Positions 5,108-58,103 of a DNA stretch of 61,023 nucleotides are shown piece after piece. Source of the stretch: Thermomicrobiales bacterium. GTDB lineage: Bacteria; Chloroflexota; Chloroflexia; Thermomicrobiales; UBA6265. A program made the translations under genes and the position numbers. Each line of letters starts with the position of its first letter. Position 1 is the stretch's first letter. The notes below the pieces were generated by a model. It was given only the letters and a program-made list of their open reading frames with translations, was not told the origin of the DNA and did not search any database. The stretch covers positions 1 to 61,023 of the forward strand of contig DATGPC010000050.1 in the NCBI GenBank assembly GCA_035305265.1, in the 5' to 3' direction.

Positions 5108-5321
5108 GGAAGCGTGTCCCTTTCCAGAGTCCGGACTCATCCTGGGACGTTAGTATGCCGGAACCGAATCGTGATTTTCATAACGACCCTGGTGGTGTGA
5201 CCCTGTTATGCCACCTACAATGGACTCGAGGGCCCCGTCCCTCAGCGACGTCGATGACTCTGGCGCCTGATGCCCCGTGTCGGCCCAAGGCTCGGAGTGA
5301 AGTGATCAGGAAGCGCGACGC

Positions 5322-6458
5322 ATGACTGCCTCGACGACATCCGGCAAACGAAAAATCGGCATCATCAACAGTGGCGGCGACTGCGCCGGCATCAATACGG
5401 TGATCGCATCCGTCGTCATTGCCGGCTCCCAGATGGGCTACGAATTCTACGGGTTCGAGCTGGGCTGGGAAGGCCTGCTGGACCGCAAGTATCGCCAGCT
5501 GACGGTCAAGGACGCCCATGCGATCGCCCATCTGGGCGGGACGATCCTGCACACTACCAACCGCGGCCGCTTCGCCGCCAAGGTCGGCACCGGCCAGACC
5601 GTCGGCATCGACCCCGAGATTCTGGCCCAGTGCAAGGAGTCCATGGAGGCGCTTGGCGTCGAGGGCCTGATCGTCATCGGTGGCGACGGCACCCTCTCCG
5701 GCGCCCTGCAGTTGGCCCAGACCGATGTCAACATCGTCGGCATCCCGAAGTCGATCGACAATGACCTGAACGCGACCGACCGCACCTTCGGCTTTGCAAC
5801 GGCCGTCCAGGTCGCGGTGGACGCGGTCGACAAGATCAAGACGACCGCCTTCAGCCACAACCGCATCTTCTTCGTCGAATGCATGGGCCGCAACGCCGGC
5901 TGGCTGTCGCTCTACACGGGCGTCGCGTCCGGCGCTGACGCGATCCTCCTGCCGGAATTCCCGACCTCGCCAGAGAGCATCGTCGAGTTCCTCCGTGAGC
6001 GGCGCGACCATCACCGCCAGTCAACCATCGTGGTCGTCTCCGAAGCCTTCGAGCTTGATGGCCAACTGGTGACCCTCGGCAACGACTACACCAACGAGGT
6101 GATCTTCTCGGGCATCTCGAACCAGTTGATCCGCCGGATCGAAAAGATCGCCCCAAACGAATTCGAGATGCGCAACGTCGTGCTTGGACATACGCAGCGC
6201 GGCGGATCCCCCATCGCCGACGACCGCATCCTCAGCACCCGATTCGGCACCCGCGCGATCCAGGCCTACGACGAGGGCCAATTCGGTCATATGGTCTCCC
6301 TGCAGAATGACCGCATCGTGACCGTCAAGCTGGAAGACGCGGTGAACCAGCTGAAGCTCGTCACCAAGGACAACGTCCTCTTCCAGGCCGCCTGCAAGAT
6401 GGGCATCTTCTTCGGCGATTCCGTCCCTCAGGAGAAAAAGCACCTGCTCGACGTCTAG
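5322..6458 (+). CDS. pfkA: 6-phosphofructokinase (ATP- or PPi-dependent)
   Basis: GIINSGGDCAGINTVI, IGGDGTL, IPKSIDNDL and MGRNAGWL are PFK family A hallmarks. Confidence 0.9.
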   Translation: MTASTTSGKRKIGIINSGGDCAGINTVIASVVIAGSQMGYEFYGFELGWEGLLDRKYRQLTVKDAHAIAHLGGTILHTTNRGRFAAKVGTGQTVGIDPEILAQCKESMEALGVEGLIVIGGDGTLSGALQLAQTDVNIVGIPKSIDNDLNATDRTFGFATAVQVAVDAVDKIKTTAFSHNRIFFVECMGRNAGWLSLYTGVASGADAILLPEFPTSPESIVEFLRERRDHHRQSTIVVVSEAFELDGQLVTLGNDYTNEVIFSGISNQLIRRIEKIAPNEFEMRNVVLGHTQRGGSPIADDRILSTRFGTRAIQAYDEGQFGHMVSLQNDRIVTVKLEDAVNQLKLVTKDNVLFQAACKMGIFFGDSVPQEKKHLLDV

Positions 6459-10514: not shown

Positions 10515-11482
10515 CGCGACACCTGGTGCTCGCGATCGACGGCGGGCAGACGAGCACGAAAGCGCTGATCGCCGACACCGAAGGGCACCTCCTCGGTCGG
10601 GGCACCGGTTCGCCGTGCGACCACATCACCGGGCCGCACGGCTATGAACGGAACCGGGACGCGATCCACAGCGCGACCCGTGCCGCGCTTGCTGACGGTG
10701 GTCTCGATGCCTCGAACATCGTCGCCGCCGGGCTCGGCCTGACCAGCGCGCCGCCGGAGATCGGCGCCCGGCCACTGTTCGAGCAGATGGTGCGGGAGAT
10801 CGCTTCTCCCAAACACCTGTGGATCCATCACGACGCCGCCTCGAACCTCGCTGGTGCCTCCGCTGGCCAGCCGGGCATCGTCGTCATCGCCGGTGGCGGC
10901 TCGCTCGGCTTCGGCATGGACGCAGCCGGCAACGAAGCCAAGGCCGGTGGCATGGGATACCTCATGGGAGATGACGGCAGTGCCTGGTGGATCGGCCTCC
11001 GCGCCCTCCATGCGGCAGCAGCTGCGGCGGATGGCCGAGGCCCGGAAACCGTCCTGCTCCCGTTCATCCTCGACCATTTCGAGCTACCAACGATCCGTCA
11101 TATCGTCGGCATCCTCTACGCGCCGGACTTCACGCGGGACAGGGTCTCCAGCCTTGCTCCTCACGTCGTCCGGATCGCGAAAGATGACGCCGTCGCCCGC
11201 GAGATCGTCGCCGAAGGAGGCAGGCGTCTCGCCGGCCTCGCCCTCGCCGTTGCCCGGAGACTGTTCGAACCAGGGGTGCCGGTCCACGTGTACCCGACCG
11301 GTGGTGTGTTCAATGCCGGCCCGCTCGTCAACGACCCGTTCCGGAACACCCTCGCCGACGGATGGCCGGAAGCGACCATCCGCGAGCCGCAGTTCCCGCC
11401 CGTGTACGGCGCCCTCTTCCAGGCGTACCGCCAGGCAGGCATCGACATCACGCCGTCGATCCTGGAGAACCTGCGGAGCTAG
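10511..11482 (+). CDS. BadF/BadG/BcrA/BcrD-type ATPase (N-acetylglucosamine kinase-like)
   Basis: LAIDGGQTSTKALIAD and VIAGGGS actin-fold ATPase motifs. 4-nt overlap with the upstream gene. Confidence 0.75.
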   Translation: MTRHLVLAIDGGQTSTKALIADTEGHLLGRGTGSPCDHITGPHGYERNRDAIHSATRAALADGGLDASNIVAAGLGLTSAPPEIGARPLFEQMVREIASPKHLWIHHDAASNLAGASAGQPGIVVIAGGGSLGFGMDAAGNEAKAGGMGYLMGDDGSAWWIGLRALHAAAAAADGRGPETVLLPFILDHFELPTIRHIVGILYAPDFTRDRVSSLAPHVVRIAKDDAVAREIVAEGGRRLAGLALAVARRLFEPGVPVHVYPTGGVFNAGPLVNDPFRNTLADGWPEATIREPQFPPVYGALFQAYRQAGIDITPSILENLRS

Positions 11483-47087: not shown

Positions 47088-48269
47088 TCACGCCTCGAGC
47101 GCGCGGGACAGGGCCTCAACGAGCGTATCAGCGTGCTCGCGCTCCCAGATCATCGGCGGCAGGAACCGGATCACGAGCGACCCGGCGGGCAGCGCCAGCA
47201 CGCCATGCTCCTGCAGCGCACGCAGCACCGGCGTGGCCTTCTGCTTCAGCTCGATGCCCAGCATCAGCCCCTCACCACGCACCGCGCGGATCTTCGGGCT
47301 CCCGATGGCCTCGATCTGCTGTTTTGCATACGCGCCAACATCCGTTGCACGCGTATACAGGTCATCCTCGCGCAGGATGCGGAGCGTCTCCGTTGCGCCG
47401 CGGGAGACGAGCGGATTCCCGCCGAACGTCGAGCCGTGCGCCCCGGCCGGGATCGCCTCGCTGATCGTTTCCGTCACGAGCGTCAGGCCGATCGGCATCC
47501 CGTTGGCAAGGGCCTTCGCCGTCGCGAGGATATCGGGCACCACGCCCTTCGCCACGCCGGCGAACGGCGCCCCGGTCCGGAAGCCGGACTGCACCTCATC
47601 GAACATCAGCAGCGCACCGTGCTGCGTCGCCAGCTCGCGGGCCTTCTGGAGCCATGCCGGGTCGGCGGGATGGATACCGCCTTCTCCCTGTACCGGCTCG
47701 AGGATCACCAGCGCCGTCGTCTCGTCGATCGCCGACTCGAGCGCTTCGAGATCGTTGAAGGAAACATGCGTCGCCTCCATCGCGAACGGCTCGAATGGCG
47801 CCCGGTACTTCTTGTCCGCGGTCGCGGCGAGCGCGCCCATCGTCCGGCCGTGGTACGCGCGCTTCGCGGCGACAATACCAGTGCGGCCGGTCGCGGCACG
47901 GGCGAACTTGATCCCCGCCTCGATCGCCTCGGTTCCGGAGTTGCTCAGGAACGCGCGCCCCAGCCCTTCCGGCGCGATGGTGCCGATCTCCTCCAGCAGC
48001 GCCGATCGGGCGTCGTTGTAGAAGCTCTGGTGGCAGGTCGTGAGCAAGCCGAGCTGATCGGTCACCGCCGCCGTGAAACGCGGATGCGCGTGCCCCAGCA
48101 CCGCGACGCCGTAGTTGCTCATCGCGTCGAGGTACCGGTTCCCCTCGCTATCGAACAGCCAGGCGCCCTCACCGCGCACCAGCGCGATGTCCCGCTTCGC
48201 GTACAGCGGAATCTGCTTCTCGCGGTCGAGCTGCGCGATCGATTCGGTGGTCATTGTGTCAGTCATCAT
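47088..48269 (-). CDS. lysJ: Class III aminotransferase: acetylornithine / [LysW]-aminoadipate-semialdehyde transaminase
   Basis: GHAHPR, SNSGTEAIE, LMFDEVQSGFRTG and the ATAKALANG PLP-Lys context (ArgD/LysJ family). Confidence 0.85.
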   Translation of the reverse strand: MMTDTMTTESIAQLDREKQIPLYAKRDIALVRGEGAWLFDSEGNRYLDAMSNYGVAVLGHAHPRFTAAVTDQLGLLTTCHQSFYNDARSALLEEIGTIAPEGLGRAFLSNSGTEAIEAGIKFARAATGRTGIVAAKRAYHGRTMGALAATADKKYRAPFEPFAMEATHVSFNDLEALESAIDETTALVILEPVQGEGGIHPADPAWLQKARELATQHGALLMFDEVQSGFRTGAPFAGVAKGVVPDILATAKALANGMPIGLTLVTETISEAIPAGAHGSTFGGNPLVSRGATETLRILREDDLYTRATDVGAYAKQQIEAIGSPKIRAVRGEGLMLGIELKQKATPVLRALQEHGVLALPAGSLVIRFLPPMIWEREHADTLVEALSRALEA

Positions 48270-48357
48270 AGTCCTCAAGAAGCCAAAAAAAGCGCTCGCC
48301 GCCCATGAAAAAGTTTGTCATTCTGAGCGGAGCGAAGAATCCCCGTGCGAAGCACAT

Positions 48358-49005
48358 TCAATCGCGCGAAACGCGTTCCTTATTCAATCGCCGCACGAGA
48401 TCCGGCACCTCCGCGAGCGAGTCGATCCGGTGCCGCACCTGCTCCATCTCCGGCCACCCTGCGTGGAGATAGCCCCACGGGCCTCGCCGGATGAACACAG
48501 CGTGCATCCCGATCTCCTGCGCCGGCAGGATGTCGTTGTCGATACGGTCGCCGACGTACATCACCTCAGCCGGCTCCATCTCCAGCTCATCGGCCATCCG
48601 CCGGAAGAAGGCCGGGTCCGGCTTCGTCACGCCCCATGACGTCGAGGACGCGTTGAGCGTCAGCGGAAGACCGAGGTCCGCCATCTGCTCGATAGCGCCG
48701 GACGGCTGGTTCCCCGCCACGCCAAGCACGAACCCCTGATGGCTCAGGCGCTTCAGCGTCGGGACTACATCCGGGTACAGGTCGCGGCTCTCGATGCGGT
48801 AACCAATGATGTTCGGGTCGACCGACTCGATCTGCATCACGTTGAAGAGGCTGCGATGGCTCTCCCGCCGCTCGATCAGGCCGCCCAGCACGCCATGCAA
48901 AGTCAACTCGGGGACACCGGCGTAGGCCGCCACCGATGACCAGAACCTGGTCTCGTTGACGAGCGTCTCGCCCTGGTCGAATACGATCGCCCGAATCGTT
49001 GTCAT
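48358..49005 (-). CDS. HAD-superfamily hydrolase
   Basis: Motif I VFDQGET, motif II GVAGNQ, motif IV YVGDRIDND. 4-nt ATGA overlap with the upstream lysZ. Confidence 0.8.
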   Translation of the reverse strand: MTTIRAIVFDQGETLVNETRFWSSVAAYAGVPELTLHGVLGGLIERRESHRSLFNVMQIESVDPNIIGYRIESRDLYPDVVPTLKRLSHQGFVLGVAGNQPSGAIEQMADLGLPLTLNASSTSWGVTKPDPAFFRRMADELEMEPAEVMYVGDRIDNDILPAQEIGMHAVFIRRGPWGYLHAGWPEMEQVRHRIDSLAEVPDLVRRLNKERVSRD

Positions 49006-49826
49006 GCCACCTTCTTCCCCGCCCGAACGACGGTGCCCTCACCTGCCAGTGCCCGCGTCACAGGTTGTTCGACGCGAGCATCGGCGAAGATCACTTGCTC
49101 GACACCCTTCTCGACCGCCTTGATCGCCTGCTCGACCTTCACGACCATGCGTCCGGCCGCCGCGGCGAGCGCGCCTTCGGCATCCGAGGCGTCGATCTCG
49201 CGAACCAAAGTGCTCTCATCATACCGGTCCTGGAGCAATCCCGGCGTATCGGAGAAGAAGAGCAAGCCCCGCGCGCCCATCGCTTCGGCGAGTCCGAGTG
49301 CGAGCTTGTCGCCGTCGAAGTTGATCGGCACGCCGCCCTCCGACAGGCCTGGCGGCGAGACGAGGACGACGAACCCGGCGTCCATCAGCGTCGTGATGAC
49401 GGTCGGATCGAAGTCCTTGACGCTCCCGGCGTGGTCGTCGCGCAGGACCTTCATCTTGCCGTCGATGTCGGTGCCACGGATCTCCGCCTTGCGCTTGCCG
49501 AAGGCGATGCCGCCATCGATCGCGCTGAGCCCAACCGCATTCACGCCCTGGGCCCGGAAATCGGCCACGGCATGCTTGTTCACCTTGCCGCAGTACGCCA
49601 TGAGCATGGCATCCATCGTCTCGGCGTCGGTGTAGCGGCTCTCGCGGCCGCTCTTCGAGGTGATCTTGCGCACGGGAAGCCCGAGTGCCTCGCAAAGCTG
49701 GCTGAATTCCGCGTTCCCGCCATGCACGATCACCACCGGCTCATCGAGCGTGGCGATATCCTTCGCGAACCGCGTGTACACATCGGCGCCGATCCCCGCG
49801 CCGCCTCCGATTTTGACCACAAGCAT
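49002..49826 (-). CDS. lysZ: [LysW]-aminoadipate / acetylglutamate kinase family
   Basis: MLVVKIGGGAG, VIVHGGN and amino-acid-kinase fold motifs. Short form (274 aa) typical of LysZ. Confidence 0.85.
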   Translation of the reverse strand: MLVVKIGGGAGIGADVYTRFAKDIATLDEPVVIVHGGNAEFSQLCEALGLPVRKITSKSGRESRYTDAETMDAMLMAYCGKVNKHAVADFRAQGVNAVGLSAIDGGIAFGKRKAEIRGTDIDGKMKVLRDDHAGSVKDFDPTVITTLMDAGFVVLVSPPGLSEGGVPINFDGDKLALGLAEAMGARGLLFFSDTPGLLQDRYDESTLVREIDASDAEGALAAAAGRMVVKVEQAIKAVEKGVEQVIFADARVEQPVTRALAGEGTVVRAGKKVA

Positions 49827-49978
49827 GAAACGTTCTGCCTCTTTCGCGCCTACGCGCCGGACACAAGGTCCGGCGGTACGGATGTCCTTGCGTACCGCCG
49901 GACCTCGCAGCCGCGGCCGGTGTCCGGCGCAATGGAGCGGAGGGCTTTTCGCCCTCCGCCCGTACGCGAAGCGATTGG

Positions 49979-51028
49979 CTAAATCGGGTGCAGGCCCGGG
50001 AACTCCAGCCCGGTCTTCTCCGGGAAGCCCATTCGGATGTTCATCGACTGCACCGCCTGCCCCGAAGCACCCTTCATCAGGTTGTCCAGCGCAGCCATGA
50101 CGACAACGCGGTTCGAATGCTCATCGCGCTCGAAGCCCACGTCGCACCAGTTCGACCCACTCAGGAGCTTCGGCTCCGGATAACGGTGAACGCCGGTGTT
50201 CTCCTTCACCAGCCGCATGAACGGCTCGTCCTTGTACGCCTCGCGGTAGATCTTCCGCAGCCTCTTGTCGTCGAGGTCTTCCTTCAGGAAGACGTGGGAT
50301 GTCGCCAGGATGCCCCGCACGGCCTCGATCGACGTCGCCGAGAAGCTCACCTTCGGCGTCTCGCCGTGGAACGTCAGCTCCTGGATGATCTCCGCGCTGT
50401 GCCGGTGGCCGGTCGGCTTGAACGAGCGCATTGCGCCGCTCCGCTCGGCGTGGTGCGAGGCCACGCTCGGCGATCCCCCGGAGCCGGACGAGCCGGTCTT
50501 CGCCTCGACGATCACCGGCATCTCCAGGTCGACGACGCCAGCCATGAAGAGCGGATAAAGCCCGAGGATCGTCGTTGACGACATGCAGCCAGGAGACGCG
50601 ATCCAGTCCGCCGACTCGATCTGCTTCCGGTGTAGCTCCGGCATGCCGTAGACGAACGTGCCGAGCGCGTCCAGGTCCTCATGCTCGTGGCTATACCACT
50701 TCGGATAGTCACCGGCGTTGTTCAGCCGGAAGTCCGAACTGAGGTCGATCACGACCGGCGCGAGATCCCGCACCTTCGGCAGCATCTTCATCGAGACGCC
50801 GTGCGGCAGCGCGAGGAAGAGCACGTCGCAGGGCTCGAGCTTGTCGCTGGAGACGAACTTCAGGTCGGTGACGCCTCGCAGGTTCGGGTGCGTGCTCTTC
50901 ACGAACTTGCCGGCCTGCCGCTCCGAGGTGACCTGCTTCAGGGCGACCTCCGGGTGGAACAGCAGCAGCCGAACCAGCTCGCCGCCAGCGTAGCCAGACC
51001 CGCCGATCACAGAAACGTTGAGACTCAT
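49979..51028 (-). CDS. lysY: N-acetyl-gamma-glutamyl-phosphate / [LysW]-aminoadipyl-phosphate reductase
   Basis: [12 protein letters not shown] Rossmann start and SPGCMSTT active-site Cys (ArgC/LysY). Confidence 0.9.
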
Positions 51029-51933
51029 ACCGCTATTTCCTCCGCCTGGACCTGTCGCCTGGCTCGATTCCCCTCGCCGACGGCGAGCACGTAATCAATG
51101 ATCTTCGCCGGGATATCGACCCCGGTCGTGTGGATGGAGTTCCGGAACTCCATCGTGTAGTTCACTTCGTTGACCTGCAGTCCCTGGTCGGTCTCGAACA
51201 GGTCAACCGCAACCACCCCGCCGCCAACCGCCTGCGCCGCCCGGAGGGATACCTCGGACAGCTCCGGTGTCACTGGGCAGTTGCTCGCCTGCCCACCGCG
51301 TGCCGTGTTCGTGATCCAGTGCGGCGAGTCCCGGTAAATCGCGCAGATGGTCTCATCGCCTACCACGAACGACCGGATGTCCCGACCATTCTTCTCGACG
51401 TACTCCTGGATATAGAACGCGCCGTGATGGAACGACCCCAGCGTCACCTTGTGCTCCAGTAGCGCCTCGGCCGCGTCGCGGTCGTTCACCCGCGCCAGCA
51501 GCCTGCCCCACGACCCGATCGCCGGCTTGAGCACCACCGGATACCCCAGCTCCTCGATCGCCTCGATGGCCGACTCCGGCGTGTAGGCGATCCGCGTCCG
51601 TGGCATCGGCACGCCGTGTCGAGCCAGGGCCTGCGTCGTCAGCAGTTTGTCGCCGCAGATGTTCGCGACCTCGTACATGTTGACCGTCGGGATGCCCCAG
51701 TCGTTCAGCGTCCGCATCGTATACATCGCGCGCAGGTGGTTGATGCAACGCTCCAGCACGACGTCGCAGGCCATGAGCTCCGGATCCGGATGCACCGGAT
51801 CGAGCGTCAAGGTCCGGTCATCGAACCGAACGACCTCCACGCCCCGGCGCTCCAGCTCCGCGAGCAGCAGCTTTTCTTCCACGCGAACCCGCGACATGAG
51901 AATCCCCACGCGCGGAGAGTGTTCCTGTACCAT
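51025..51933 (-). CDS. lysX: RimK-type ATP-grasp ligase, LysX/ArgX family (copy 1, intact motifs)
   Basis: [55 protein letters not shown] and VAVDLFE...VNEVN. 4-nt overlap with lysY. Start at MVQEHSPR (51933). Confidence 0.85.
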
Positions 51934-52250
51934 CCGGAACGTCCTTTCCCGGCGCCCTGATGCGCCGGCGAACTGCACACGGCCCACCTCGTCAAGAGGA
52001 CGGGGGCCGCTCCGTGGTACCACCTCTGTTCGCGTGCTCCTCACAGATGCACGCCTTGGCGAGTGCGCGCCCGCGCACCCACGCCCGATAACGGAGGCTG
52101 CCGACCGGGTCTACTGACCGGGCGATTCTCGCCCGGCGTTCTTCCGGTTGCTCGGGGACCTTCATGTGACCACCCATGCCGCGACGCTCTCACCGTCTCG
52201 TCGCTCGCTGGGGCCGGGTTACCGGCCACATGTTCCCGTCAACGCAGGTA
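51934..52250 (-). promoter_or_regulatory. T-box riboswitch leader (non-canonical specifier loop) with predicted SD sequestration
   Basis: Minus strand: AG bulge AGCGA (52209..52205), distal loop GGUGAGA (52194..52188) closed by GCGACG/CGUCGC, specifier-side loop GAAGGUC (52163..52157), F-box-like CCGUUA. T-box core AACAGAGGUGGUACCACGGA (52030..52011). CGUCCU (52002..51997) is complementary to SD AGGACG (51945..51940). Confidence 0.75.
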
Positions 52251-52272
52251 TTCGGTTTTCAGGTTGCTTCGT

Positions 52273-52291
52273 CCTGCACCACGCGTGCAAG
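52273..52291 (-). repeat. Copy c of a conserved spacer hairpin (CTTGCAC-GCGTG-GTGCAGG)
   Basis: Shares the stem and loop pattern with 53323..53345 and 55319..55339 (one stem mismatch). Lies upstream of T-box leader 1. Confidence 0.5.
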
Positions 52292-52346
52292 ACATCGACC
52301 GCAAATCGATAGATAACCCAGCGCAATGCGGCGCCTGCGGGTCCGA

Positions 52347-52367
52347 TCCCGGACACATGGTCCGGGA
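52347..52367 (-). terminator. Hairpin after the lysX-like copy 2 stop (no U-tract)
   Basis: 7-bp stem TCCCGGA / TCCGGGA with a 7-nt loop, 10 nt after the stop codon. May separate the two T-box-controlled units. Confidence 0.35.
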
Positions 52368-52376
52368 CTACGAAGA

Positions 52377-53291
52377 TTACCCGACACCCGCCGCCGTCAA
52401 CGGGTCCATCACCCGCTCACGCGCCACCCGCGCCGCCTCCTCGACAATCTCTCCCGCGATATCACGGTCGGTCGTCGTCATCAGGCCCTTGAACTCGCCG
52501 CCGGTATTGATCTCGATGACCTTCAAGCCGTCATCGGTCTCGATCAGGTCGACACCAGCGAGCCGCGCCCCGACGACCTCGCAGGCCCGCAGGGCAAGCT
52601 CCTCGATCTCCGGCGTCACCGGACACGGTACCGACACCGCGCCCCGCGCCGCATTCGTGATCCAGTGCTCCGACGTGCGATACGACGCCGCGACGATCTT
52701 CCCGCCGACAACGTAGGCGCGAATATCCCGTCCCGGTTTCTCGACGTACTCCTGGATATAGAAGATTTCGTGATGGAAGGAGCCATGCTCGGACTTCTGC
52801 TGGATGATCGCCCGGGCCTGGTCCGGACCGTTCACCTTCGAGATGAGGCGACCCCAGGAGCCCGCGACCGGTTTCAGCACCGCCGGGTACCCGAGCTGCT
52901 CGCACGCCTCCAGCGCCGACTCCACCGAGTAGGCGACGAAGGTCTTCGGCGACGGTATCCCCGCCGCCTCCAGCACCATGCTGGCTCGGGCCTTATCGTC
53001 GCAGATCGTCACTGCCGCCGCGCTGTTCAGCGTTGGCACGCCCCATCGATTCATCGCCCAGAGCGTGTAGCCGGCGCGGGAGTGAACGACGCTGCGGTCC
53101 AGCATGACATCGACATCGACTCCACTCTCGGCGGCCGTCGGCGCCGACAGGTTCAGCGTCAGGTTGCGGTCGAAGACCGGCGTGACGATCATGCCGCGCG
53201 CCCGTGCCGCCGCGAGGATCAATTTCTCTTCCTGCCGGAGATAGGAGACGAGCACTCCGAGCCGGAGCCCCGCCCCACGTTCCTGTGACAT
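52377..53291 (-). CDS. RimK-type ATP-grasp ligase, LysX/ArgX family (copy 2, intact motifs)
   Basis: [56 protein letters not shown] and GVDLIE...VIEINT. Confidence 0.85.
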   Translation of the reverse strand: MSQERGAGLRLGVLVSYLRQEEKLILAAARARGMIVTPVFDRNLTLNLSAPTAAESGVDVDVMLDRSVVHSRAGYTLWAMNRWGVPTLNSAAAVTICDDKARASMVLEAAGIPSPKTFVAYSVESALEACEQLGYPAVLKPVAGSWGRLISKVNGPDQARAIIQQKSEHGSFHHEIFYIQEYVEKPGRDIRAYVVGGKIVAASYRTSEHWITNAARGAVSVPCPVTPEIEELALRACEVVGARLAGVDLIETDDGLKVIEINTGGEFKGLMTTTDRDIAGEIVEEAARVARERVMDPLTAAGVG

Positions 53292-53322
53292 GTATTTTTC
53301 CTTATCAGAGGAGCGCTCCGTC

Positions 53323-53345
53323 GTCTCGCACCATGCGTGCGAGAC
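53323..53345 (-). repeat. Copy a of the conserved spacer hairpin (GTCTCGCAC-GCATG-GTGCGAGAC)
   Basis: Perfect 9-bp stem in the 66-nt spacer between lysK and lysX-like copy 2. Confidence 0.55.
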
Positions 53346-53357
53346 ATGGCCCCGGGC

Positions 53358-54420
<1,063 letters not shown>

Positions 54421-54443
<23 letters not shown>

Positions 54444-55278
54444 CGCGTGCCTCCTGGACCGCGCCCGACGGGGAGACCAGCGCGGCAATGGCTTCCGCCA
54501 CCGTCTTCGTTCCCAGCAACGTGCTCTTGCGGAACTCGGCCACCGGGATCGCATCCCAGACAACCAGCTCGCCTTCAATCGTCGCGATCTCGATCGCCAC
54601 CACGGCAGCGCCGATCACATTCGCCGCCTTGCACGCAAGGTCGGTCATCGCTGCGGACGGAATCGGCCCGTCGTACGCGACAGCCTCGCCGCCCACCACG
54701 TGAATACGATGCAGATGCTCATCCGACGGCGCGCCGGCCTGGACGAGAATGACAGCCTCATCCGCGCTGCCCAGAACGATCCGGTGCTCGATGACCGCAT
54801 CAGCGGTATCCGCATCATGCAGCGTCGTCGACGCGGTTCCCGGGATCATCGGCAGCAGCGTGGCGGGATAGCCCACCATACCGGCCGCCTGAACACCGGT
54901 CGCCTCGGAGAAGGCGATCATCGTCTTCGGCCGCGGAAGCCCCGCTCGAGTCAGGGCCGTGGCGACTTCCTGACGGTTCCTCGTCGACGCCAGGCCGGCA
55001 TCGATGACCCGCACGCCGGACTGGCGAAGCAGCCTGGCAAACGGCCTGGCCACCTGCCGGTTCGTCGACCGGTCAATGATCACGCCATCGGCGCCGAGGA
55101 TACCGGCGTCGGAGGAGTCGCCCAGCGCCGCGATGTCCTGCGGCGCCGGGCACGGAGGCAAGGGCAGGCTCATGGGGGATACCGGCATCGCCACCGCTCC
55201 GGCCTCGCCGAAGGCGGTGATGAGCTGCTTCTCTTCCACACGAACGCGCGCGCAAAGCACGCCGACTGCCGTTGCCAT
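54421..55278 (-). CDS. Degenerate LysX/RimK-like ATP-grasp paralogue (predicted catalytically inactive)
   Basis: The N-terminus VGVLCARVRVEEKQLI aligns with both LysX copies. The motifs are replaced: GYPATLLPMIPGTAS for [14 protein letters not shown], ILVQAGAPSDEHLHR for [14 protein letters not shown], IEIAT...VWDAI for VDLxE...ExN, and there is no NTARGG. The frame is intact with high GC3. Confidence 0.7.
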
Positions 55279-55318
55279 GTCCGTTGACTTCTCCTTGCGA
55301 GGTCATATCCTCGCGTAG

Positions 55319-55339
55319 CCTCGCACCATGTGTGCGAGG
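55319..55339 (-). repeat. Copy b of the conserved spacer hairpin (CCTCGCAC-ACATG-GTGCGAGG)
   Basis: Perfect 8-bp stem in the spacer between lysW and the degenerate ATP-grasp gene. A second hairpin GCGAGG/CCTCGC sits next to it (about 55295..55315). Confidence 0.55.
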
Positions 55340-55367
55340 AATCGGCCACAGGCGGATATTCGGGCGA

Positions 55368-55535
55368 CTACTCGCCCCAGTCCTCGCCCTCTTCCGGCGC
55401 CAGCGCGAGCGTCACCGGATCGGTGCTTACAACTTCGAGATCCGCGCCACAATCACCGCACGGCACGATCTCGCCAACCTCAACGCCTTCGACCTCGACC
55501 TCGGCGTCACACTCGGGGCAAACTGCGGTAGCCAT
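55368..55535 (-). CDS. lysW: Amino-group carrier protein LysW
   Basis: 55 aa. Zinc-ribbon CPECDAEV...CGDCGADL and an acidic tail ending EEGEDWGE. AAGGGAAGG RBS upstream. Confidence 0.85.
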   Translation of the reverse strand: MATAVCPECDAEVEVEGVEVGEIVPCGDCGADLEVVSTDPVTLALAPEEGEDWGE

Positions 55536-55601
55536 TGCTGAACCTTCCCTTTCATCAATCCCTGGATCACGGCCGATCGCCGGACCTGACATACCTACGC
55601 G

Positions 55602-56678
55602 TTAGCTCTTGTCCATGACGGCCGAGGCATCGGACACCGTCGGGATGTCCTCACTCGTACGCTCGTCATGCAGCACCTGCAGCAGCACCGCCTTGTGGAC
55701 ATGCAGCCGCCCTTCGGCCTGGTCGAAGATGATCGACTGCGGGCCATCCGCAACCTCCGGCTCGACCTCCTGTCCGCGGTGCAACGGCAGGCAGTGCATG
55801 AAGACCGCCTCCGGTTTCGCGTGTGCCATGACCTCCCTGGTCACCCGGTAGGGCGCCAGCGCGACCAGTTTTCCCGGATTCTCCTGCTCGCCCATGCTCT
55901 CGTGCACATCGGTATAGACCGCATCCGCACCGTCCGCCGCCTCGAACGCCGAATCGACGAACTCCAATTTGGCACCGGTCTGCGCCGCAATCGCTTGCGC
56001 TTCGGCGACCACGGCCGGCTCCGGCGCGTAGTCCTTCGGCGTCGCGACGGACATGTTCACGCCGCTGGATGCCATCGCCAGCATCAGTGAATGGCAGACA
56101 TTGTTGCCATCACCCAGATAGGCGAATTTCAACCCGGTGAGGGTCCCGAAGTGTTCATACAATGCGAAAACGTCGCTCAACGCCTCGAGCGGGTGATCGT
56201 GCGAGGTCAGGGCGTTGAACACCGGCACCGTCGCGCCGCCGGCGAACTCATCCAGGTCGGCCGGGTCCGCGATGCGCGCGGCGACCGCATCGACGTAGCG
56301 GCTGAAGATCCGCGCCGTGTCCCCGATCGTCTCGCCTCGCTTGAGCTGCAGGTCCTGGATCCCAAGGAAGATCGCCTGCCCGCCCAACTGCTCCATCCCC
56401 GCCTGGAACGCCGTCCGCGTTCGCGTGCTCGGGTGCTGGAAGATCATCCCCAGCGTCTTGCCGCCCAGCCACGGATGCGGCTCCCCCGCCACGCGCATCG
56501 CCTTGAGCGTAAGCGCGGTCTCCAGGATCGCGGTGCGCTCGTCCGGGCTGAGATCGGTGTCGCGCAGGATGGACTTGCCGCGAAGCGATCCTGTCAGGAC
56601 CATTTCCTTGATCTCGCCGTCTCGCACCTGCTGGATCCTTCGTTCTTGCGTGGTGGTAGCTGTCGACACTGCGCTCAT
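55602..56678 (-). CDS. argF: Ornithine carbamoyltransferase-like protein (copy 1)
   Basis: FQHPSTRTR, LKRGETIGDTA, HPLEALSD, GDGNNV, DVHESMG and HCLPLHRGQEV. Confidence 0.8.
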   Translation of the reverse strand: MSAVSTATTTQERRIQQVRDGEIKEMVLTGSLRGKSILRDTDLSPDERTAILETALTLKAMRVAGEPHPWLGGKTLGMIFQHPSTRTRTAFQAGMEQLGGQAIFLGIQDLQLKRGETIGDTARIFSRYVDAVAARIADPADLDEFAGGATVPVFNALTSHDHPLEALSDVFALYEHFGTLTGLKFAYLGDGNNVCHSLMLAMASSGVNMSVATPKDYAPEPAVVAEAQAIAAQTGAKLEFVDSAFEAADGADAVYTDVHESMGEQENPGKLVALAPYRVTREVMAHAKPEAVFMHCLPLHRGQEVEPEVADGPQSIIFDQAEGRLHVHKAVLLQVLHDERTSEDIPTVSDASAVMDKS

Positions 56679-56688
56679 CCGGCTTCCC

Positions 56689-57783
56689 CTAGCACATCGT
56701 GTGCACAAGAAGCGCCTTGTGCATGTGAAGCCGGTTCTCGGCCTGGTCGAAGATCACCGACTGCGCACCATCGGCGACGTCGGCGGCGACTTCCTCGTCC
56801 CGGTGCATCGGCAGGCAGTGCATGAAGATCGCATCCGGCGCGGCCTTGGCCATGACATCGGACGTCACCTTGTACGGCGCGAGCGCAACGGCCCGGTTCG
56901 CGGCATCCATCTGGCCCATGCTGACGTGCACGTCGGTATAGACCGCGTTGGCGTCCTTCGCTGCCTCATACGGATCCGTCGTGACCTCGATCGTGGCGCC
57001 GGTGGACGAGGCGATCCACTGCGCGTGCTTCACCACGGCAGGATCGACCTGGTAGTTGGATGGGGCGGCGACCGAGACGCTGACGCCCATCGCGGCGCCG
57101 GAAAGCATGAGCGACGACGCCATATTGTTGCCGTCCCCGAGGTAGGCCAGCTTCAGCCCCTTCAGCTCTCCAAAGTTCTCCTGGAGCGTCATGAGGTCGG
57201 CCAGCGCCTGCAGCGGATGGCAGAGATCGGAAAGACCGTTCATGACCGGGATGGTCGCGGACGTCGCAAGCTGGATGAGGTCGTTGTGGTCCGCGACGCG
57301 GGCAACGATGGCATCCACGTACCGGCTGAGGATCTGCGCCGTATCGCCGATCGTCTCCCCCCGCTTCATCTGCAGGTCATTCACGCCGAGGAAGATCGCC
57401 TGGCCACCCAGCTGCGCCATGCCCGCCTCGAGCGAGACGCGGGTCCGGGTGCTCGGGTGCTGGAAGATGAGGCCAAGGGTCTTTCCGGTCAGGTAATGAT
57501 GCGGCTGGCCGGTCTTGGCGAGTCGCTTCAGCCGAACAGCGGTATCGACCAGCTCGGCGATCTCGTCCGGCGTGAGGTCGGTGTCGACCAGCACATGCCG
57601 CCCCCGCAGCCGGGTGCTGACGGAGAACGCCGGCAATGACTGCACCTGCGGGCCGCCGAGCAGCGAGGTGCGGTCCGACGCCGGGCCGGAGAGCTTCTGG
57701 CTCACGGACGGCACGGACCGAAGCTCCGGCGTGACATGCGGCAGGGCGGAATCGTCGACTGTGGTGGTGACCTGGTTCTGCAT
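56689..57783 (-). CDS. Ornithine carbamoyltransferase-like protein (copy 2, about 65-aa N-terminal extension)
   Basis: FQHPSTRTR, MKRGETIGDTA, HPLQALAD, GDGNNM, DVHVSMG and HCLPMHRDEEV. AAGGGAG RBS 6 nt before ATG 57783. Confidence 0.8.
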   Translation of the reverse strand: MQNQVTTTVDDSALPHVTPELRSVPSVSQKLSGPASDRTSLLGGPQVQSLPAFSVSTRLRGRHVLVDTDLTPDEIAELVDTAVRLKRLAKTGQPHHYLTGKTLGLIFQHPSTRTRVSLEAGMAQLGGQAIFLGVNDLQMKRGETIGDTAQILSRYVDAIVARVADHNDLIQLATSATIPVMNGLSDLCHPLQALADLMTLQENFGELKGLKLAYLGDGNNMASSLMLSGAAMGVSVSVAAPSNYQVDPAVVKHAQWIASSTGATIEVTTDPYEAAKDANAVYTDVHVSMGQMDAANRAVALAPYKVTSDVMAKAAPDAIFMHCLPMHRDEEVAADVADGAQSVIFDQAENRLHMHKALLVHTMC

Positions 57784-58103
57784 GGTGGACTCCCTTTGGT
57801 TCTGGTTCTTTCCTGCGAAAAGCCGCAGACGCCAGGTCGACTGGCCAATATGGCCTGTCGAACCAAAGGGGCGAGAGACGTCGAATCCCGCGGTACCACC
57901 CTTCTTGCGCGGCGAGCGCCACGCATCTCTCGGCTGTTGCTTCCATGGGAGCCACCCATCCGGACCTACTTGCGCGAACGCGCTTTCTTCGGCCGGCCGC
58001 TCATGGGCGCGTTCGGCGATCCTGCGCTGGTCCCGGGCTTCCACCGTCCCCGGGTCGCTATGGCGCATGAACCGCGTACTGGTCCCAGTCATCGCGGGCG
58101 GTG
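57784..58103 (-). promoter_or_regulatory. T-box riboswitch leader, Arg specifier (CGC), with predicted SD sequestration
   Basis: Minus strand: GAUGA K-turn (about 58093..58089), AGUA (58080..58077), AG bulge AGCGA (58059..58055), distal loop GGUGGAA (58045..58039), specifier GAA-CGC-G (58014..58008). T-box core AAGAAGGGUGGUACCGCGGG (57906..57887). CCUUUGGUUC (57869..57860) is complementary to GAACCAAAGG (57802..57793), which covers the SD. Confidence 0.85.

Follow-up and report, generated by a model that had tools for sequence, protein, structure and literature searches.

A candidate translational T-box with an arginine specifier ahead of the ornithine carbamoyltransferase genes in the LysW operon of Thermomicrobiales

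The study of translational T-boxes has been almost confined to actinobacterial ileS leaders with a shortened stem I. The leader considered here comes from a quite different setting, the operon of the LysW carrier in a Thermomicrobiales bacterium (Chloroflexota), where it precedes a tandem pair of ornithine carbamoyltransferase (OTC) genes, OTC1 and OTC2; the DNA in question is contig DATGPC010000050.1 of assembly GCA_035305265.1, positions 1 to 61,023, and "the window" below means the whole of this 61,023-nucleotide (nt) stretch. We think it likely that this leader is a tRNA-Arg-specific T-box which gates the initiation of translation and not the termination of transcription.

Translational T-boxes are the smaller class, found mostly in Actinobacteria, and in most of them stem I is intermediate or ultrashort, with few of the canonical long kind (PMC7583486); a first-pass annotation of the window, made from the letters alone, had likewise described T-boxes that sequester a Shine-Dalgarno (SD) sequence as chiefly actinobacterial. 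TBDB applies its translational model only to Actinobacteria and to matches with a truncated stem I (PMC7778990). In the ileS leaders of Mycobacterium and Nocardia (Sherwood, Grundy and Henkin 2015, as reviewed in PMC7583486) an antisequestrator formed with the T-box sequence is stabilized by uncharged tRNA; otherwise its 3' strand pairs with the SD, and there is no terminator. The leader described here would work in the same way. Those leaders, however, read isoleucine, control an aminoacyl-tRNA synthetase and mostly have a short stem I without the elbow platform, whereas here the specifier is that of arginine, the target is a biosynthetic enzyme, the lineage is Chloroflexota, stem I is full length and a 57-nt insert makes the sequestrator a three-way junction. 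Since long-stem-I translational T-boxes are already on record as a rare type (PMC7583486), the mechanism is not new; the Arg leader would work like the TBDB class II or ileS type, but structurally it fits among the rarer translational T-boxes with a long stem I.

The canonical transcriptional T-boxes, such as those of Bacillus subtilis tyrS and glyQS (RF00230), share the same aptamer, including the S-turn stem II, the 14-nt T-box and the UGGN bulge, but the Arg leader lacks their terminator hairpin and U tract, and its competing helix engages the SD instead. Arg T-boxes of Firmicutes, which occur in argS leaders and, as reportedly described by Vitreschak et al. in 2008, in the regulon for arginine biosynthesis in Clostridioides difficile, are also tRNA-Arg-specific T-boxes placed before arginine-related genes; they are said to act through transcription terminators, in low-GC Gram-positives and on the classical acetylated pathway, whereas here the SD is sequestered and the target is the OTC genes of a LysW operon. 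No paper connecting T-boxes with the LysW carrier or with an ornithine carbamoyltransferase was found in a literature search of incomplete coverage. Both the aptamer and the principle of the switch are already established; what appears to be new is the combination of an Arg specifier, a long stem I, SD sequestration and Chloroflexota, along with the gene targeted, a sequestrator in the form of a three-way junction and the occurrence of an Arg and a Lys T-box together in one operon.

The aptamer and its specifier

The covariance model RF00230 aligns with the leader from end to end, untruncated over all of its positions 1-219, at 70.2 bits, with an expectation value (E) of 4.6e-15 in the local stretch and 3.5e-13 in the whole window. 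The match is thus significant and complete, though it stops short of the curated Rfam gathering score for this family, 93 bits, which is an operational threshold and not a structural feature. An Rfam scan of the window at the gathering threshold gives zero matches, since 70.2 bits falls under 93, and the T-boxes surface only under an E-value threshold. The Arg leader has a G+C content of 68%, whereas the consensus of the model is AU-rich, and all four T-boxes scored in the clade are below 93 bits: 70.2 and 53.6 in the window, and 72.5 and 34.8 in one related locus, L002 (at 5182..5419 and 10996..11255), where the 72.5-bit T-box is the orthologue of the Arg leader. Two other T-box-like cores in L002, at 490 and 3894, lie inside coding sequence and were set aside as chance matches.

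Relatives were gathered by scanning a genome collection with the LysX-A protein of the operon, which gave 48 loci (numbered with the prefix L); the 34 closest, at 60-94% identity, are almost all labelled Thermomicrobiales, Sphaerobacteraceae, Chloroflexia or Chloroflexota metagenome-assembled genomes. In 24 genomic leaders, those of the window and of 23 related loci, an Arg T-box precedes the OTC1 start by about 100 nt, and among the related loci none was found that had an intact OTC1 upstream region but no Arg T-box. A scan of metagenomes with the T-box core pattern returned at least 120 matches, and in 71 of the 120 listed a homologue of OTC1 is directly downstream. With the metagenomes included, 76 distinct Arg leaders are found among the matches listed, and the counts over 76 leaders given below all carry that scope. 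One metagenome contig of 174.6 kb (L068, Ga0182741_1000064) encodes an OTC1 98.6% identical to that of the window, with a leader that differs by a single, SD-proximal base; it is probably from the same or a sister population.

In the RF00230 alignment the elements stand in canonical order, including stem II with its GAA/AGUA, IIA/B, stem III and the T-box (Table 1). The first-pass annotation had read the K-turn, AGUA, AG bulge, distal loop and specifier loop of stem I from the letters, and every one of them is present on the minus strand where it was placed, with GAUGA...GAGC at the base of stem I and GAA-CGC-G running into the stem CCCA/UGGG. From 23 stem I sequences RNAalifold predicts the canonical stem, with compensatory changes in 17 of its 23 pairs; from about 20 orthologues it also obtains the antiterminator-type helix along with stems II, IIA and III, where 13 pairs are compensated. 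AGUA, AGCGA, GGUG.AAGCC and GAACGC vary little or not at all across 23 orthologues, and the distal platform, present as the sequence motifs of the AG bulge and distal loop, is conserved in the same set. AGGGUGGUACCGCG is invariant across the orthologues, and the predicted consensus structure of 20 of them contains helices A1 and A2, so that sequence, RF00230 alignment and orthologue consensus agree on the antiterminator shape proposed at first reading, with A1, the UGGUACC bulge and A2. A IIA/B pseudoknot pairing of GGCU with AGCC, and of GGUU with AACC in L028, was seen on inspection by eye only. Stem I is full length and not truncated, which places the leader structurally outside TBDB class II and the actinobacterial ileS class. 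On this computational evidence the element is almost certainly a T-box.

GAA runs directly into CGC in each of the 24 genomic leaders, and one G or A separates CGC from the stem; of the 76 distinct leaders 73 have CGC and three CGG, and the initial assignment of CGC as an arginine specifier holds up well. The register in glyQS is GAA-GGC-A-stem, that is, codon, one purine, stem, and the Arg leader likewise has its codon, a single purine and then the stem. That an overlapping triplet of GAACGCG is the specifier, AAC (Asn), ACG (Thr) or GCG (Ala), and that some other amino acid is sensed, seems very unlikely. These triplets are equally conserved, as the whole heptamer is, and the G or A after CGC would be synonymous for alanine (GCG/GCA); but the register favors CGC, which comes right after GAA and is followed by one purine and the start of the stem, while under the GCG reading the next base would be a pyrimidine already within the stem. 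The three CGG leaders keep arginine in the CGC register, whereas GCG becomes GGG (Gly) and AAC and ACG are left unchanged, and this synonymous change therefore favors Arg over the Ala reading; the gene downstream, an ornithine carbamoyltransferase, also speaks against a specifier for another amino acid. The leader thus very probably reads arginine. Arg specifiers in TBDB prefer C-ending codons (PMC7778990), a preference that CGC fits.

The CGG specifier was seen in the OTC leaders of two metagenome contigs, L049 (JAESFT010002988.1) and L105 (JAESGR010000056.1), and would imply a different tRNA-Arg isoacceptor there, with anticodon CCG. The UGGU bulge predicts a partner tRNA with A73; a search for tRNA genes that covered the window and the 34 related loci found none.

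Table 1. Features of the Arg leader, the operon behind it and the Lys T-box (window coordinates)
Feature	Position	Strand	Basis
T-box leader aptamer: stems I, II, IIA/B, III and T-box sequence with antisequestrator	57864..58101	-	RF00230, compensatory changes
GAUGA, K-turn at stem I base	58089..58093	-	sequence; aligns to model GAUGA
AGUA	58077..58080	-	sequence
AG bulge AGCGA	58055..58059	-	sequence; aligns to model AGAGA
Distal loop GGUGGAA, closed by CCCGGG/CCCGGG	58039..58045	-	sequence; aligns to model UGGUGaaA
Platform span, AG bulge plus distal loop (tRNA-elbow-binding motifs)	58039..58059	-	sequence, RF00230
Specifier region GAA-CGC-G	58008..58014	-	sequence, RF00230
Specifier codon CGC (Arg), GAA before, purine G58008 after	58009..58011	-	invariant in 24/24 genomic leaders
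T-box sequence AAGAAGGGUGGUACCGCGGG	57887..57906	-	sequence, RF00230; invariant in orthologue alignment
Bulge UGGUACC, UGGU complementary to tRNA 3' end ACCA	57892..57898	-	sequence, RF00230
Helix A1, AAGGG (57899..57903) with CCCUU (57866..57870)	57866..57903	-	Rfam alignment, RNAalifold consensus of 20 orthologues
Helix A2, GCGGGA (57886..57891) with UCUCGC (57871..57876)	57871..57891	-	Rfam alignment, RNAalifold consensus of 20 orthologues
Anti-SD strand CCCUUUGGUUC, common to helix A1 and sequestrator	57860..57870	-	complementarity; paired in lowest-energy and centroid folds
57-nt insert, two hairpin arms; makes sequestrator a three-way junction	57803..57859	-	fold of 57770..57912
SD-containing strand GAACCAAAGGG (57792..57802) and SD AAGGGAG (57790..57796)	57790..57802	-	sequence, fold
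OTC1, ornithine carbamoyltransferase, 364 aa, ATG 57783, cistron with gated SD (predicted)	56689..57783	-	TIGR00658, 385 bits
OTC2, tandem paralogue, 60% identical to OTC1, ATG 10 nt past OTC1 stop	55602..56678	-	sequence comparison
Rest of LysW operon: lysW, degenerate ATP-grasp, lysK, lysX-A, [Lys T-box], lysX-B, lysY/argC, lysZ, HAD hydrolase, lysJ	47088..55592	-	Pfam, NCBIfam
lysX-A, LysX-like ligase	52377..53291	-	family matches
Second T-box leader, between lysX-A and lysX-B	51993..52251	-	RF00230, 53.6 bits, E 6.9e-11
Lys T-box specifier AAG (Lys)	52160..52162	-	AAG plus purine invariant in 16 orthologues
Terminator-like hairpin after Lys T-box	51980..52009	-	sequence
lysX-B, orthodox LysX copy directly downstream of Lys T-box	51025..51933	-	TIGR02144, 345 bits

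Expression platform and predicted switch

The SD of OTC1, AAGGGAG, stands 6 nt ahead of the ATG at 57783..57781, and the strand that contains it, GAACCAAAGGG, is perfectly complementary to CCCUUUGGUUC, the strand that also provides the 3' side of helix A1. The first-pass annotation had seen this complement and its match is indeed perfect, but it is 11 nt long, not 10. When the segment 57770..57912 is folded, CCCUUUGGUUC and GAACCAAAGGG are paired with each other in both the lowest-energy and the centroid structures, with the A2 hairpin kept, while a constrained fold in which helix A1 is forced leaves 2 of 6 SD bases paired. The two structures, called mutually exclusive at first reading, prove so on folding, the SD helix being that of the lowest-energy fold and excluding the antiterminator-like helix.

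This arrangement is conserved. In each of the 24 orthologues the strand that forms the best duplex with the anti-SD strand has its end on an AAGGGR element, which lies 0-10 nt from the start codon, and 6-10 nt from it in 23 of the 24; between the two strands an insert of variable length and sequence is found at the same place. The lowest-energy platform fold pairs the SD with the anti-SD strand in 16 of the 24, and in the other eight the two states are mostly within about 1 kcal/mol of each other, with two that differ by about 3. The first-pass annotation had further noted that there is no U-tract terminator, and this stands: a scan of the window finds no terminator-like site between the T-box and the start codon, in the 24 orthologues the stretch from the anti-SD strand to the start codon has at most 5 U in any 8 nt, and a crude terminator-like hairpin with U tract is found in just 2 of the 76 distinct leaders, 6 U in 8 being reached by 4 of the 76. 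A scan for a sigma-70 promoter upstream of the leader gave no match.

The loop of A2, GACGUC (57877..57882), and a GGCGUC element within the insert (57828..57833), both on the minus strand, are strongly conserved and complementary over 6 bp including one G-U. A loop-to-junction contact between them is possible from the sequences; inspection of the orthologues found no compensatory change in this pairing, and we do not claim it, given that it amounts to conserved sequence without such change.

We infer tRNA-Arg binding, a translational read-out and a regulatory rationale as follows. Stem I, with its K-turn, specifier loop, AG bulge and distal loop, would offer CGC to the anticodon of tRNA-Arg, and the free ACCA end of an uncharged tRNA-Arg would pair with the UGGU of the T-box bulge. 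As uncharged tRNA-Arg accumulates, helix A1 (AAGGG/CCCUU) would be stabilized and its strand drawn off the SD, which would allow initiation at OTC1. Without uncharged tRNA-Arg, CCCUUUGGUUC would pair with GAACCAAAGGG, the three-way junction would close and the SD of OTC1 would be buried; a charged tRNA would be unable to stabilize A1, and the SD would then remain in the three-way junction. The decision would be taken co-transcriptionally, before the SD strand emerges some 60 nt later. OTC2, whose ATG comes so soon after the OTC1 stop, may follow through coupling. The rationale for such a switch would be that it leaves untouched the transcription of lysW/K/Y/Z/J, which is needed for both lysine and arginine synthesis. 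The first-pass annotation had let the leader gate the translation of the carbamoyltransferase-lysW operon; sequestration of the SD is supported by the folds and by conservation, but gating can be ascribed only to the first cistron, OTC1, and since the later genes have SDs of their own, only OTC1, and perhaps OTC2, need respond.

Weight of the evidence and rival read-outs

Several points weigh against a translational switch of this kind. The CCCUU of the T-box is inherently complementary to any AAGGG-type SD, and part of the sequestrator pairing therefore comes free. In an ungapped anchored alignment of the 24 leaders the paired fraction is 76.7%, as against 76.9% with shuffled partners; over 54 distinct pairs it is 75.2% as against 74.0%, with 168 of 2000 shuffles as high, and the covariation score of the sequestrator helix is matched by 58 of 2000 shuffles. 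These alignments (spliced or ungapped anchored) keep a fixed register, and as bulges and register shifts, for example in L009 and L028, break it, an alignment-free comparison of duplex energies was used instead. This gives a clearer result: the cognate mean is -16.4 and the non-cognate mean -15.2 kcal/mol over the 54 distinct pairs, with a permutation p of about 5e-5, although the relatedness of sequences inflates the apparent significance of tests of this kind. Compensatory variants of the sequestrator do occur, namely UUUGGUUC/GAACCAAA, UUCGGUC/GACCGAA, UUCGACUCA/UGAGUCGAA, UUCCG/CGGAA and UUCAG/CUGAA, yet the sequestrator rests on conservation and a small energy effect, not on strong covariation. 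To this must be added the RF00230 score of the leader, under the Rfam gathering cut-off, and the fold of the window itself, in which the OFF state lies 13.3 kcal/mol below the constrained ON state in energy; many of the orthologues, unlike the window, are nearly iso-energetic between the two. A gap of 13.3 kcal/mol exceeds what equilibrium switching would bridge, and the choice would therefore be a kinetic one, made during transcription. A Rho-dependent polar effect is also conceivable.

Given the free complementarity of CCCUU, one possibility is that the match between anti-SD strand and SD is incidental, every T-box having a CCCUU and every strong SD being AAGGG-like, and that OTC1 is translated constitutively behind a T-box that is a relic or acts in some other way, for example on mRNA stability. 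The column-wise covariation, no better than partner shuffles, would agree with this, as would the state of one clade (L013, L019, L021 and L022), in which the helix is down to 6-8 bp and the duplexes are worth -9.8 to -12.9 kcal/mol. We nevertheless regard it as improbable. The pairing exceeds the free core in most leaders, with positions 7-9 paired in 70-83%; the paired fraction is 75% in register 0 and at most 58% once the partner is slid by one column or more, and cognate duplexes are the stronger ones. No other expression platform is present. Strong purifying selection, accompanied by compensatory changes, acts on the aptamer, and its specifier is fixed on Arg codons; it is therefore not a relic. 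A somewhat less remote alternative, though still an unlikely one, is an Arg T-box with a transcriptional read-out, through a terminator without U tract or through Rho-dependent termination on untranslated OTC1 message, sequestration of the SD then being only a stage in an operon-wide polar effect. In its OFF state the RNA forms a multi-branch helix that is GC-rich and very stable, and the 13.3 kcal/mol gap resembles those of kinetically decided transcriptional T-boxes; a long stem I with an elbow-binding platform is typical of transcriptional T-boxes as well (PMC7583486). The lineage, however, uses ordinary terminators elsewhere, hairpins followed by UUUUU coming after its Lys T-box in several orthologues. 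T-boxes that share the core but have other specifiers, mostly Leu CUC and Trp UGG, carry terminators too: among the matches listed, 19 of 25 have a GGGGCG-type hairpin and U tract, as against 2 of the 76 Arg leaders. The near absence of terminators after the Arg T-box is therefore specific. In every one of the 24 orthologues, moreover, the alternative helix has the SD itself as its 3' strand, and termination at the Arg leader would also silence lysW/K/Y/Z/J, which are required for lysine synthesis. Taken together, these points indicate that the Arg leader probably acts on translation.

The LysW operon, its Lys T-box and significance

The first genes behind the leader had been called OTCase-like, and the family match of OTC1 and the tandem paralogy of OTC2 bear this out. 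The start of OTC1 and its N-terminal extension of about 58 amino acids (aa) are conserved at the protein level in 24 orthologues, and the start codon is therefore secure; the extension contains the motif VPSV..LGGP..F.xSTRLRGRH. Both proteins carry STRTR, SMG and HCLP, with HPLE in OTC2 where OTC1 has HPLQ. The gene order of the LysW operon is kept in about 30 Thermomicrobiales loci, and no other arginine or lysine genes were found among the large open reading frames scanned elsewhere in the window. The degenerate ATP-grasp or LysX-like gene (54421..55278, minus strand, 285 aa) gives a weak match to the pre-ATP-grasp domain only; it is found between lysW and lysK in all related loci, 41-69% identical, and its end overlaps the likely start of lysK. 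A run of seven T, in GCGCTTTTTTTGG (about 48279..48318, minus strand), lies after the HAD hydrolase gene and just upstream of the lysJ start, and may be an internal terminator or attenuator. A small, conserved hairpin, CCGGGAAAGGACGUUCCGG (51934..51960, minus strand), ends right before the ATG of lysX-B and has the SD of that gene (AAGGA) in its loop, an arrangement which recurs in L003, L015 and L016.

The second T-box shares with the Arg leader its family, its lineage, its operon and the UGGU bulge, but differs from it in its AAG specifier, its terminator-like hairpin and its optional presence: in about one third of the related loci lysX-A and lysX-B are 14-200 nt apart with no T-box between them. 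Where present it is 100-250 nt from the next start codon, and the U tract behind its hairpin, weak in the window, is clear (UUUUU) in L008 and L015-L017. A GAA-GGU (Gly) specifier was considered for it and rejected, GAA not being conserved while AAG plus purine is invariant; with AAG and its purine fixed and the preceding bases variable, this T-box therefore reads Lys. Against the PDB chains 1uc8 and 3vpd, which we take to be the LysX of Thermus and of Sulfolobus, LysX-B scores 297 and 325 bits and LysX-A 210 and 225 bits. Together with the specificities of the two T-boxes, these scores suggest that LysX-A may be the glutamate ligase of the arginine branch.

The two T-boxes might form a single circuit that splits a shared LysW pathway, the translational Arg switch sparing lysW/K/Y/Z/J, the Lys T-box tuning LysX-B as the alpha-aminoadipate ligase, and LysX-A serving as an ArgX-like glutamate-LysW ligase. 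We offer this tentatively, as rather less likely than its opposite, and one fact counts against it, namely that the terminator-like Lys T-box sits upstream of lysY/Z/J, which are needed for arginine too. If true, the circuit would be regulatory evidence for arginine synthesis via LysW in Thermomicrobiales, and an example of operon logic setting the mode, translation or transcription, in which a riboswitch works.

For genome annotation, the 93-bit gathering score misses T-boxes of high-GC lineages, and annotation that relies on it would overlook them. The Arg leaders make up a conserved family, with some 76 distinct members among the matches listed from Thermomicrobiales genomes and metagenomes, and offer a natural system for the study of how one aptamer is wired to two kinds of output. 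With the carbamoyltransferases under arginine control and the orthodox lysX under lysine control, the arrangement suggests that these bacteria use the LysW pathway for the synthesis of both amino acids, and the specificities of the T-boxes suggest which ATP-grasp paralogue belongs to which branch.

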